A stretch of DNA of 62,700 bases, counting the filler, from Collodictyon triciliatum (taxonomy: Eukaryota): NCBI GenBank assembly GCA_043381765.1. It is 7 parts of 7 records of this genome, joined end to end, with 100 filler letters (N's around TTAATTAATTAA, not from the genome) between each part and the next. Parts side by side here need not be neighbours in the genome. Positions count along the whole stretch, not along the records: positions 46,676 to 56,405 come from JBHJMP010002910.1; 6 more parts are not named here. One strand, written 5' to 3'. Shown here one piece after another: positions 51,679 through 56,334 of the stretch. The translations under genes and the position numbers were made by a program. The notes under the pieces are model-generated. The model did no database searches. It had not been told where the DNA came from and worked only from the letters and a program-made list of their open reading frames with translations. Within the stretch, counting starts at the first letter, position 1; every line of letters begins with the position of its first letter.

Positions 51679-54600
51679 TCACTGGGAGAAGCTTCCGCGG
51701 GAGGCCGCGTGGCACGTCAAATGCACCATCTGCCCAGGTGAGTTCAAGGAGACGCCAAAGTCAATGGCCCCAAACAGCTGAGGGATTCTGCCATGAATCT
51801 TTGGAACATACTCCCCTCCGGCCACAAAGTGGAACGTCTCCCTAACAAAGTCGACGATGATCATGACTTTGGCAGGTCGCGGTAAACTCATGGATTTGAA
51901 GTACGAATTGGAGACAACTGGGGCCCTATCATTTTCTTTGGTGAAAAACCATGCACATTTTCACATTCCCGCATACTCTTCCACATCAATCTCCATCTCC
52001 ACATATACATACCCGAGTGCATACATACATAAATATAAAGAAGAAACAGGAAAAAAAAAATAAACGACAGGAAAAAACCGAGATTGAAAATGAAGCTACC
52101 CTGTCAAGTTGTTGTTCAGCCGGTATCTGAACAGGGAGAAGTCAATCTCTATCCCGACTGTGCCCTTGCGCCTTCCCAGGACCTCGTCCCCAGGCAAGTT
52201 GGGCGGGCCGAACCCAACAATAATGTGCTGTGTGACTCCGGTAAAGATAAGGTTAGATTCAAGGATATAAAGCTGATTATTTGAAAAAGAGACAGGACTT
52301 TGGAGCTGGGTGGTGTGATAGGTCCTCAACTCGTTTGAACTGACAATGAAAGGGAGTGGGTGAATAAAAACGCTCGTCGACAAAGATTCTTGAGATTTTG
52401 AAGGCAGACTGGACCTCTTTGATTGCCTATTCTCGGCTTCATTTCCACTTCCGATTCTCACGACAACAGCAGAGTCGGGGGTACCAAAATGAATGAAAGG
52501 AGAGACTTCACATTCATTTGATACGTCAAACTTTACACTAATCGTGGATGCTTCCACGTGGAAAATAACCGTCTTATTATGTCGAACGAAAGAAAGTGCA
52601 ACGGTTAAACCTGGTTGTGAAGAAAAACTGGACAGCTTTGTGGTGTATTTTTCAGACATAAGTATGTTTCCTGTCACTGTGTCAAAGCTGATTGATGGGC
52701 CTGTGTCATCATCTCGCTTTTCCTCCTGTAATGTTGGCGATATGGCTTGTAAACCCACTTTGATTTGTCCTCTGATGAGGGTGACACAGCATTCGGAATT
52801 TTCGGGTAAGGGTGGCAGCACTCGCTTCATATACAAGGGGTTGGAAGTGTTAAACGAAGGGATGCAAAGATAAAATAGACTTGGTGCCTCGGAGAATGAT
52901 GACATAATAGCCCCTGATGGATGTTTGTAATGAATAGTTTTGGTAGTCTGGGTTGGAAGCTCATAGATGCCGGGTATTAAGCTTTTTTGACCTATGATAC
53001 GATAGTTACGATAAATGGACGAGTATACGTATAAAGTAATGAATACTTAAACAGCACCAAACAGTAATGATATATGAATGCACGGTGATGAGTTTAATAC
53101 ATATCCCACCATAGTAGTCGGCGACACTGCATACATTTATTTCACTGGCAGAGTCCGCCTATGCATTTATTTACACATTGGTATTGAGTTCACGGCGTGT
53201 AATAAATTGATGGCAATAGTTTCAATTTAAAATGTAACTATGCAACAAAAAAAAAATAATCAAAAGATTAAGTTATGAGATACCTTTTCTCCGTAAAGAA
53301 AGGATCTGTAGACATTAATGATATCTTTATAAAAGCGAGAGCCACGCAAAATCATCCAAATCGGATATGTAGCCAACCAAATTACGAGAAAGGTTATGTA
53401 GCTTAAATAGAGCAAAAATGAACTTATGTATGTCATAGTATTGTTCTGGCTTCCTCTAAGTATGAACGACATAGTTTTTTCAAAGATAACTAGAATGGTC
53501 ATCATGAACCACACCAGAAATATGCAAAGATAATCAACCACCGATTCCAAGTGCCAGCATTTCCCAGTCAGACTGTCACCCCATGGCTCAAAAGACCGAG
53601 GTATTGGCAAGATGTAAGCTATATTTGCTTGAAAGTTTCCAAAGGCCATAAATTTTCTCCATACGTAAGCCCTTTCTTTTACGCTCAAGTTGATGATACC
53701 AAAGAATACCTCAAGAACTCCAAGAGGCGGACAAAGTGGAGAATCCTTGATAAAGAACACGTTTTCACAAAAAAGCCTCTTTCTTTCCCGTTCAGCCTGA
53801 ACAGCTAAATCTTCATAGGTCGCACTGAGCATAGCTATCAAGAAATTCAAAAGCATGATTGTGATAATTAAAACGAAAAGATACGCATCTAATCCCTGAA
53901 ACAATGATTTTCCGAAAGAAAATGGAGAAAAATCAATATCCCCAAACATCGACTGCAAACCCGTGGATATCGATGACCCGATGGTTCTGTATTCAAAAGT
54001 GCTAGAACCGTACCCCAACGCGAAATGGAGCGAAAATGAAATCAGGAATATAAATAGAAAAACCAAAAACTGGGACAAGATCAACACCATTTTCTTCATT
54101 ATGTTTTGCATAAGACCCATAAAGGGCAGTATGCTAGAAAAGAAAATCAATCGAATATACGATAAAAAAGTGATGGTACCCAGTATATTGACCTTGATAA
54201 ACCATTGGCGTGATAATGCTGCCAGAATTTGAAAGATTTCTTCCCCGTTTTTCTCTATTTTTTGTCTCTCGTTGAGATAGGAAATATTCTGATTTGTGAA
54301 AAAGAATGCACAGTAGAAGCCGCATAGACAAAAATCAAACCAAAACCAAGTGTCAACATAATCCGGTTTGCGCTTCATCCACAGACGCTGAACTAAGTAG
54401 TACAGAAATGAAAGTATCCAAGCGGCAAGCAGATAGCTGATTAGTTTGAGTTTGAATGTCGAAAGATCGACAAATTGTTTCGGAAATGGTGTAATTTCAT
54501 TCCATGTATTTGCATTTCCAGTAGGGGGGAATTCGAAAAAAATAGATACGAAGCAGAAGGCATCCACGTTATCCACTGAAATAAGAAATTCTATTGCAAT

Positions 54601-56334
54601 AAACCGGGTTTGTGTATCAATCCAGAATGTCTGCTGTAAAATATTCAACATTATAACGGTATCTATAACCTCTGAAGACAGGTAAACCATAAAACCATCT
54701 GAACTGTAGGAAATTCCTAATGGACTGGTTGTATAGCTTCTTGACACTGCTGCTGCTTTTTCGTACCTGTACATCCCAAAAGGGCCGTAGGCCGACTTAT
54801 CTTCATTGCTTTTCGAGTACACACCCGAACAAAGTTGATCTCGGATATCATCAGGACGGTCCATGTAAGACAGGGACCCGCAATATACTTTTTTCGCCCT
54901 TAATTGGCGAACCCGAACAAAATTTGTCACCCGGTAAGTCGACTGTGAACCAGATGGATTGGAAGGCGAGTTGATTGAATGCATGTAGTAAGGTCCATTA
55001 TAGAATTTTTCGTAAAAAGTGCTTTGAATATACCCCCAAAATTCATTTGCTGAGGACACGTTGCCAGAGGTAAATGCCTCAATTGGTAATTTTGAAATTT
55101 CATAGACAGGCAGATCTTGCGTTTTTGATGATTCTATAACATATGTTGTTATAAGAACGAGATAAAGAATATAGCATCCAAGAGAAAGGGTGTATTTGGC
55201 TTTCACCGAGTTGACAAATCTTGGAAATAGCTTCATGGTATAAATTTTTGTCCAGAAAGAAATCCCTTCAAGACTAAAAGCTCGGTCAGGTACTGTGTCG
55301 GTTGTTTGTAAAAGATAATGTTTCCTTGATGAATTATTGTGCCATAGTTCATCAAGCCTCCTTTGAACAATTTGATTCTCTAGGTAGATGACTGCATCAC
55401 TTCGAACAGCGAGGCGGATGATGCGGTCCAACTCATGAGCTTGAAAACCTTTGTCCTCGTTCTGCAATGTAAGCTGATTGCTTCCATATTTTTCAAAGGC
55501 AGTAATTATTTGTGACTTGACGTTTGGGTGACTTCGGATGGCTTGCAGAACTTTAAGAGACTGAGAAATACAGTCACTGTCTTTGGAGAAAATTTTTGAG
55601 AGTTTTGAGCAGATGGCAAATGGTATATCTTGATTCCCATACAAAATTAATTGGAATGGAGGCAAAGAGCACAGCTGGGGAGGGATACCTAGGACGAGAT
55701 GTATAATTAGACATGGATGTGCTTTATCTAGTGATTTTCTATTTTGGAAACAAATACAGAGGTAGATACACTTAAATAGACGCGAAGAGTATAAATTAAA
55801 CTTACATATTGCGTAAGAAGGATGGTTCGAAGAAGTTGACGAGCCATTCGATGTTTTTTCATTGTTTGACATTTTTTCTGTGAATTCGAGATTGTTGTGT
55901 GAAAAGTCCACGCTTTTGATGCTCTGTAAATGCTCGATAGCAGGTGGGATATGTCTGATTCTGTTGTGGCTTAGGTTTAGTATTCTTAAATTGGTTAGAA
56001 GGCATATTTCTTTAGATACAAAGGGAAGAGCACAGTCTACGACATGGAGCTCTAGTAACTGAGTGCATTGGAATATGACATGTGGTATTGCTCTCAGTCT
56101 CATTCTTTCCAGGGTAATCTTTTTTAGATTTTGAAGATCTCTAAGACTGTGTGGCAAATGGTATTCCCCAGCTCCATCTGCCTGGAGACTGAGAAGTAAG
56201 GATTCGAGATTCTTGAGGTTCGAAATTTCTTCAGGAAGCCTTTGTAGTCGTACTTTTCGCAAGTCAAGCTCCTTGGCCTGAAGAAGTTCATCCACAGTCC
56301 ATCCTTTCCACGCAGCGATCTCCTCCATGAACAC
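51679..56334 (-). CDS. LRR + polycystin-type (TRPP/PKD2-like) cation channel + two SPRY-like C-terminal domains
   Basis: N-terminal LRRs (LPEEISNLKNLESL, LTNLRILNLSHNRI), pre-S1 IVQRRLDELW, TOP domain RVRQLRAKKVYC..FWIDTQTRFIAIEF..FEFPPTG, S5-pore-S6 FALGYG..LQSMFGDIDF..MLLNFLIAMLSATY. Phase-compatible exons at about 53110-53158, 52100-52991 and 51679-51925 extend the ORF. Confidence 0.85.

Follow-up and report, generated by a model that had tools for sequence, protein, structure and literature searches.

The stretch of DNA analysed here (the window, 62,700 nucleotides with filler included, from Collodictyon triciliatum, assembly GCA_043381765.1) is of eukaryotic nuclear character. On its minus strand, at about 56328-51679, it carries a split nuclear gene whose putative product combines a leucine-rich repeat (LRR) head, a channel of the polycystin type and a beta-rich tail. 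A reading made earlier from the DNA alone (the sequence-only reading) had proposed that one spliced frame joins these parts. The locus was followed up by Pfam, profile, structure and sequence-library searches and by cDNA contigs, and the parts of this proposal did not all fare equally.

Layout of the gene and its transcripts

A stop-to-stop scan of the minus strand gave three successive open reading frames (ORFs): 53260-56457 (1065 codons, the long ORF), 52096-53046 (316 codons, ORF2) and 51679-51960 (93 codons, ORF3). Amino acid (aa) numbers given below are those of the long-ORF protein. The first ATG of the long ORF is at 56328, and ORF2 and ORF3 together encode the tail of 364 aa; all tail peptides quoted in the sequence-only reading were found in these two frames. 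A four-exon model without an internal stop gives a product of 1340 aa (1344 aa with the alternative acceptor), or 1379 aa if the in-frame intron in the LRR region is retained. The elements of the model are as follows (TM, transmembrane helix; a slash marks a splice point).

55806..56328, minus strand: exon 1, from the ATG (56328-56326) through LRRs 1-6 to a Ser/Asn-rich insert (Pfam LRR span 55888-56295)
55689..55805, minus strand: putative in-frame intron of 117 nt, GTAAGT..CCTAG inside the last LRR, read from sequence only
53284..55688, minus strand: exon 2, with the LRR end, a 150-aa linker, S1, TOP domain, S2-S6, TM7 and TM8, ending ...YGEK at the donor
~55135-55191, minus strand: S1 (hydropathy)
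54487-55062, minus strand: TOP/polycystin domain (Pfam, PKD2 alignment)
53809-54459, minus strand: S2-S6 pore module (Pfam, PKD2 alignment)
53938..53946, minus strand: Phe-Gly-Asp codons of the pore loop, position counted from the phmmer alignment to 9dwt_A and 5t4d_A
~53485-53541, minus strand: extra helix TM7 (hydropathy)
~53350-53427, minus strand: extra helix TM8 (hydropathy)
52948..53283, minus strand: predicted channel-to-tail intron, donor AAG/GTATCT, acceptor 52948 or 52960, both phase 0
52974..53114, plus strand: stretch of 141 nt skipped in a cDNA contig (short side 100 nt), with GT..AG in the plus-strand sense, inside the predicted intron
52100..52947, minus strand: exon 3, with a short linker, repeat 1 (~52447-52917) and, from ~52374, the first half of repeat 2
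51926..52099, minus strand: intron of 174 nt, phase 2, GT..AG (cDNA contig)
51679..51925, minus strand: coding part of exon 4, with the second half of repeat 2 and the stop TGA at 51681-51679

The 117-nt stretch 55689-55805 looks like an in-frame intron. Its length is a multiple of three, the frame stays open with or without its removal, and the architecture would be the same either way. The GC content of the introns is 0.32-0.35 (0.316 in the LRR region, 0.336 between channel and tail, 0.345 in the tail), as against 0.39-0.54 in the exons and 0.39-0.42 in the flanks of the 117-nt stretch. On the 3' side an AATAAA begins at 51634, 45 nt past the TGA, and an A/G-rich low-complexity tract (51200-51560) lies just downstream. 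Upstream of the ATG there are a C-rich and A-rich low-complexity stretch and runs of N (56406-56450 and 56462-56505), with a (CAA)n tract at 56560-56640; a further N run (~50240-51200) lies on the downstream side of the gene. The N runs are taken as assembly gaps, and the interior of the gene is free of them.

Contigs were available from three sequencing runs whose type was guessed as RNA; one of the runs gave no contig here, and no contig lies on 53220-55935. The runs were treated as cDNA because the contigs carry canonical splice joints and a loose end like those left by template switching. This loose end, 23 nt long, is at 51918 (minus strand) on the exon 4 contig; we take it to be complementary to a template-switch oligo of the SMART type. 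It marks a cDNA 5' end of the minus-strand RNA inside exon 4, which probably stems from a fragment. At 99% identity the contigs cover exon 1 (55935-56304, without a joint), the exon 3 region (52099-52972) and exon 4 (51620-51918). The intron between ORF2 and ORF3 (51926-52099) is present as a cDNA joint which reads CT..AC on the plus strand, is in frame, has 22 nt on its short side and equals the junction predicted beforehand from the frame (ACAGG/GTAGCT ... GATAG/G).

These data also bear on the idea of a decaying or misassembled gene copy, with tail ORFs that are remnants joined to the channel by chance. The gaps on both sides of the gene would fit this idea, as would a retroelement remnant 5 kb off (an ORF at 45900-46619, minus strand, with a zf-RVT match at 1.8e-6). 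However, about 1340 codons are stop-free across the four exons, no gap falls within the gene, the cDNA contigs agree almost perfectly with three of the exons, and the same order of parts recurs in a transcript of an independent organism (see below). We therefore consider a decayed or misassembled copy very improbable.

The leucine-rich head and the channel core

The N-terminal part of the long ORF contains about six LRRs. Three Pfam models exceeded their cut-offs at aa 14-149, namely LRR_8 (35.1 bits, cut-off 27), LRR_4 (28.3 bits, cut-off 27) and LRR_1 (22.4 bits, cut-off 20.6), and the pattern LxxLxLxxN was matched at aa 81, 91, 114 and 137. Among PDB sequences the best matches of the repeats were LRRD1 (2.9e-29) and SHOC2 (~1e-23), and the LRR domains of LRRC8A, C and D followed at 1e-12 to 1e-10. 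The N-terminus is hydrophilic, and a signal peptide was not apparent from hydropathy or direct reading, so that the LRRs are expected to be cytosolic. A predicted-complex run of the LRRs (aa 3-165) against the tail, made with no controls, scored 0.00.

The next part is dominated by similarity to polycystin-2. Pfam assigned Polycystin_dom (PF20519; 73.1 bits, cut-off 23.6, E 2.9e-20) to aa 425-616 and PKD_channel (PF08016; 41.4 bits, cut-off 22.4, E 1.4e-10) to aa 626-842. In a phmmer search of the PDB, aa 419-850 matched PKD2 chains (residues 53-474 or 266-694) over about 430 residues at ~1e-20 (7e-21), and PKD2L1 at ~2e-16; TRPC3 matched only the S2-S3 region (E ~4e-4). The hydrophobic segments lie at the positions expected for a six-helix unit with a large S1-S2 domain. 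The triplet FGD is aligned on LGD of the polycystin-2 pore loop (9dwt_A, 5t4d_A), which we take to be the selectivity filter of PKD2. In S6, LLNFLIAMLSATYEDL is aligned with LLNMFLAIINDTYSEV of PKD2 and the LLN...TY motif is kept. The stretch ...C..VYS.S.ED...GP of the TOP domain is likewise conserved. The TOP domain of PKD2 carries a disulfide cysteine pair; in the alignment with the window protein the second cysteine is matched (..QLC versus ..KEC) and the first is offset by about 3 positions. The Pfam scan detected neither an EF-hand nor a coiled-coil tail, and there were no RIH, MIR or RyR-domain families among the Pfam matches of the long ORF, ORF2 and ORF3. Judged by its sequence, the channel part holds as a PKD2-like (TRPP, group II TRP) channel subunit.

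Two strongly hydrophobic segments follow S6, TM7 and TM8 (Kyte-Doolittle 2.48 and 1.97). Both are conserved in an ORF of Diphylleia rotans described in the next section, the model of which has two long helices. Thus the N-terminal LRRs without a signal peptide, the PKD2-like TOP domain with its six-helix pore and the additional hydrophobic helices of the sequence-only reading were all borne out. Its TRP-type pre-S1 was not: the linker at aa 225-385 had no Pfam match, and the best PDB sequence, a glycoside hydrolase, reached only E 1.3.

Joining and fold of the tail

When ORF2 was searched exhaustively by phmmer against 1,835,955,588 representatives, a single match was obtained (E 1.3e-14), an ORF of 483 aa from the transcriptome of Diphylleia rotans (EukProt EP00002, TRINITY_DN11966_c0_g1_i1.p1). 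Residues 4-90 of this ORF align with aa 930-1017 of the long ORF, that is with TM7-TM8 (24/88 identical, E 4e-7), and the alignment stops at WGEK versus YGEK, exactly at the donor. The remainder follows ORF2 and then ORF3 in the same order down to the final residues (88/353 identical) and crosses the splice confirmed by cDNA. The two proteins thus share the order TM7-TM8-GEK-repeat 1-repeat 2 as far as their C-termini, with 25-27% identity; past GEK, the D. rotans linker has about 30 additional residues. Judging from this colinearity, another organism has the two helices and the tail on a single mRNA. In the window, TM7 and TM8 share an unbroken stop-free frame with the pore. The donor at 53283 (AAG/GTATCT) directly follows ...YGEK and is the one with a good consensus among the two GT sites listed; the only plausible frame-compatible acceptors before the conserved tail are 52960 and 52948, both phase 0. 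A further acceptor, 52888, was rejected since it would cut into the part conserved with the D. rotans ORF. The predicted introns are, moreover, richer in AT than the exons. The channel-to-tail splice, and hence a single gene, is probable on these grounds.

Several observations speak against this join. None of the contigs of the three runs crosses 53283-52948/52960, and the one composed of 52485-52972 and 53114-53213 retains 52961-52972 and 53114-53213, which are modelled as intron. The D. rotans ORF has its initial Met where TM7 lies and contains neither LRR nor pore, so that the module of two helices and tail may be a stand-alone protein in that organism, or else the transcript may be 5'-truncated. 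The contig of 52485-52972 and 53114-53213 also skips the 141 nt listed above, with the plus-strand joint consensus ccgg/GTATTAAG ... cccaccatag/T; this skip is likely to represent an antisense spliced RNA and less likely an indel between individuals.

The locus might accordingly make two products, an LRR-channel ending at the stop of the long ORF (53260-53262, ...GEKVSHNLIF) and a separate tail, either soluble from a Met of ORF2 or in the form of a TM7-TM8-tail membrane protein like that of Diphylleia. The sole contig within the predicted intron keeps intron sequence and shows no minus-strand splice, ORF2 has in-frame Met codons just before its conserved part (...AIMSSFSE...), and the Met at TM7 of the 483-aa ORF points the same way. 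On the other hand, the Diphylleia mRNA unites TM7-TM8 with the tail and its homology reaches the codon before the donor (GEK), the two helices continue the frame of the pore without a break, a good donor meets usable acceptors which are all in phase, and a soluble tail from an ORF2 Met would leave the conserved junction unexplained. Two separate products therefore seem rather unlikely to us. As regards the one spliced frame of the sequence-only reading, the union of LRRs, channel and helices in one ORF and the intron between ORF2 and ORF3 stood, and the join of channel to tail is a prediction.

The fold of the tail was approached mainly through models. Neither ORF2 nor ORF3 matched a Pfam family at E<=1, the separate repeats had no match at E<=10, and the D. 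rotans ORF had no SPRY match in Pfam; no galectin (PF00337) or L-type lectin family came up in these scans either. In a protein-language-model atlas the nearest named clusters of ORF2 were SPSB2-like SPRY (0.90) and Neuralized (0.88-0.89), with recognition 1784 and about 130 of 256 features in common, which can be regarded as a lead only. The AlphaFold models were built from two- to four-row alignments and are of low confidence, and matches of such models can be meaningless. Both tail models are beta-rich, and the N-terminal helices of the D. rotans model reach pLDDT 70-80.

With the window model, Foldseek placed TRIM25 PRYSPRY domains at ranks 1-5 (E 3.0e-3 to 4.1e-3, TM 0.29/0.39), none of them at 1e-3, and 14 of the 50 rows of a VIA wide search were titled SPRY, B30.2 or PRYSPRY, at Z 5.9-7.4, which is a middling range; repeat 1 of this model matched TRIM10 at Z 7.4. 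Repeat 1 of the D. rotans model (~117-298) gave a clearer picture. Its best VIA match was the MID1 PRYSPRY domain (Z 11.2, root-mean-square deviation (rmsd) 3.0, 137/164 aligned), and all 15 rows confined to this repeat were SPRY- or neuralized-type, nine of them by title and six by the known type of the protein. The 20 VIA rows confined to repeat 2 of the same model (~305-480) comprised 11 galectins, five GH32 and otherwise lectin-like domains (Z 8.9-11.0; for example galectin-8N at Z 10.7 and a lectin-like domain of E. histolytica at Z 11.0, both with this low-confidence model), and no SPRY domain was among them. With the D. rotans model, the top Foldseek matches were to tandem-repeat galectins (3e-8) and to ryanodine receptors (1e-7), with rmsd of 10-20 A, values which indicate matches to two sandwiches in other orientations. 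A direct comparison of the two repeats by hhalign (E 0.13, 47 columns) aligned equivalent positions and was not significant.

In our reading, the tail may consist of two concanavalin-like beta sandwiches. Repeat 1 is rather probably SPRY-like, and repeat 2, as modelled, looks to be of the same broad fold class, galectin- or lectin-like and not assignable to a family. Some results fit this poorly. The tail has no Pfam model at E<=10, and its alignment profile found among PDB sequences only malate dehydrogenase (E 0.73). Mean pLDDT is 43.9 for the 283-aa exon 3 of the window and 48.7 for the D. rotans ORF, and the top VIA row for the window model is the jelly-roll of Clostridioides CspA (Z 8.2), which is not SPRY. 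The two SPRY-like repeats of the sequence-only reading are thus reduced to one candidate, since the modelled fold of repeat 1 matches SPRY/B30.2 at low model confidence, no Pfam SPRY (PF00622) match was obtained, and repeat 2 resembles galectins and lectins.

The side of the membrane on which the tail lies depends on the helices after S6. The region from S6 to TM7 contains a weaker hydrophobic segment of 19 aa (Kyte-Doolittle 1.74), and if this segment spans the membrane the tail would be outside, contrary to the cytosolic placement. There are 11 Lys/Arg residues in the S6-TM7 loop and 6 in the 25 residues after TM8, a distribution which suggests a TM7-TM8 hairpin with a cytosolic tail. The alternative is the same gene with nine helices and an extracellular or luminal tail that binds glycans beside the TOP domain, like the lectin modules of polycystin-1. 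Besides the weak segment, the galectin and L-type lectin matches of repeat 2 in the D. rotans model (Z 10-11) and the lead of tandem galectins in Foldseek would agree with this arrangement. The weak segment, however, contains a Glu and two Pro residues and has Lys/Arg-rich stretches on both flanks. The Lys/Arg residues past TM8 fit an inside location, the tail on direct reading (a weak indication) is poor in Cys and lacks obvious marks of secreted domains, and SPRY-type domains are mostly cytosolic or nuclear. An outside tail is consequently improbable in our view.

Known channels, neighbouring genes and the proposed product

PKD2 and PKD2L1 (PDB 5t4d, 5k47, 9dwt, 5z1w) have in common with the window protein the six helices, the TOP domain between S1 and S2, the x-Gly-Asp filter and the LLN...TY motif of S6. 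The window protein adds the LRR head, two helices after S6 and the tail, and the EF-hand and coiled coil were not detected. Ryanodine receptors, the cytosolic shell of which contains three SPRY domains, are likewise cation channels with cytosolic SPRY-type sandwiches, but their pore family is unrelated (RyR/IP3R versus TRPP); their Foldseek matches to the D. rotans model (E 1e-7 to 1e-5, rmsd ~20 A, ~400 columns) reflect two-sandwich content only. In LRRC8 (VRAC) a cytosolic LRR block is also attached to a channel. There the LRRs form the C-terminal part of a four-helix subunit of a pannexin-like hexamer, whereas in the window protein they are at the opposite, N-terminal end of a TRP-type six-helix unit; only the repeats are alike, and these resemble SHOC2 and LRRD1 more closely. 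The LRRs of polycystin-1 are extracellular, behind a signal peptide, in an 11-helix receptor with GAIN and REJ domains; the window protein has no signal peptide and no GAIN/REJ, and its pore is PKD2-like. According to the part of PMC10932423 covered here, polycystin-1 is a member of the polycystin family with N-terminal LRRs and lectin-type modules.

A closer parallel in protists is PKDRR of oomycetes, which the covered part of PMC7399828 describes as a PKD2-like channel fused to ryanodine-receptor 'R' domains. It is also a protist PKD2-type channel with added domains known from ryanodine receptors and would be a precedent for modular accessories on TRPP-like pores. Unlike PKDRR with its 'R' repeats, the window protein has no RyR-domain Pfam match and has SPRY- and galectin-like sandwiches instead. 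That part of PMC7399828 did not mention SPRY and used 'leucine' once, in another context. A comparable case is the WD40-bearing TRPW family named in a 2026 choanoflagellate preprint, and the portion of this TRP survey covered here contained no mention of LRR or SPRY. In the literature searched, which took in parts of these sources, a channel of the PKD2 type bearing LRR or SPRY domains did not come up.

The sequence libraries gave a similar result. In a word-seeded search of 5.8 billion clusters, 8 of the 5744 candidates for aa 1-1024 reached E<=0.001, all of them LRR-only, and none of the 7494 candidates for the channel (aa 375-860) did so. The protein atlas yielded no usable match of the long-ORF protein among its named clusters. 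The pore is an ordinary member of the PKD2-like family, while the whole architecture matches no family found; the accessory domains make up an unusual set, and at the sequence level the tail is close to being an orphan. The undescribed architecture claimed in the sequence-only reading agrees with these searches, in which neither a description in the literature nor such a relative in the libraries came up.

Other genes lie elsewhere in the window. A stop-free ORF of 1975 codons at 20929-26856 (plus strand) contains, according to Pfam, about 20 WD40 stretches (aa ~50-900, in its own numbering) and 28 Ephrin_rec_like repeats from ~921, and is odd in pairing propellers of cytosolic type with cysteine-rich repeats of ectodomain type. 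Exons of an MCM4-like helicase are at 12573-13004 and 15072-15359 (minus strand; MCM P-loop 1.1e-17, MCM_OB 8e-4). Relatives of the MCM4-like exon across fungi, animals, plants and protists share about 40-53% identity over 71% of the query, none near-identical; two rows at 67% and 88% identity cover only 22-35% of the query. Pfam matches of raw ORFs identified four ordinary split nuclear genes, as follows.

31193-31609, plus strand: HPPK (4.9e-12)
34947-35219, minus strand: FANCL, UBC-like domain 3 (1.5e-11)
40490-41080 and 42215-42505, minus strand: MFS_1, two exons
59071-59439, plus strand: RabGAP-TBC (2.8e-16)

Returning to the LRR-channel locus, we favour, with somewhat better than even confidence, a single gene for a TRPP-type cation channel subunit with an LRR head, two extra helices and a spliced-on beta-sandwich tail. 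If it follows its family, the subunits would form tetramers and conduct cations or calcium, the pore would operate as in PKD2, and the TOP domain would face the outside or a lumen, with the LRR head in the cytosol. The TM7-TM8 hairpin, judged from the Lys/Arg residues, would bring the chain back to the cytosol, and the spliced-on tail would be cytosolic too. It counts against this proposal that function, assembly and conductance are deduced from family membership only. By analogy with the ankyrin repeats of other TRP channels and the SPRY domains of ryanodine receptors, the LRR head and the sandwich tail may be binding modules which anchor the channel to partners in the cytosol or through which such partners modulate gating. 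The gating by an intracellular ligand and the role in immunity or ciliary sensing that the sequence-only reading proposed are guesses. In its strict form, that of a sensor-channel fusion in which binding of an intracellular ligand or protein at the LRR head and tail directly opens or closes the TRPP pore, the idea is doubtful. LRR and SPRY or lectin-like folds serve recognition in innate immunity elsewhere. If a direct sensor were nevertheless encoded here, a single polypeptide would link recognition with a cation or calcium signal, and the tail would found a new domain family seen in two deep-branching eukaryotes.

If the tail turns out to have a gene of its own, an LRR-TRPP channel extended by two helices would remain, unreported in the searched literature and less striking. 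The tail, with one relative in 1.84 billion representatives, is of interest as regards fold and binding partners. In animals, short EF-hand and coiled-coil tails regulate TRPP channels, together with partner proteins such as polycystin-1. If the favoured single gene is correct, it would offer a compact system for studying how cytosolic binding modules act on the gate of a group II TRP channel, and protists would, as in the cases of PKDRR and TRPW, build receptor-plus-pore units from other parts.

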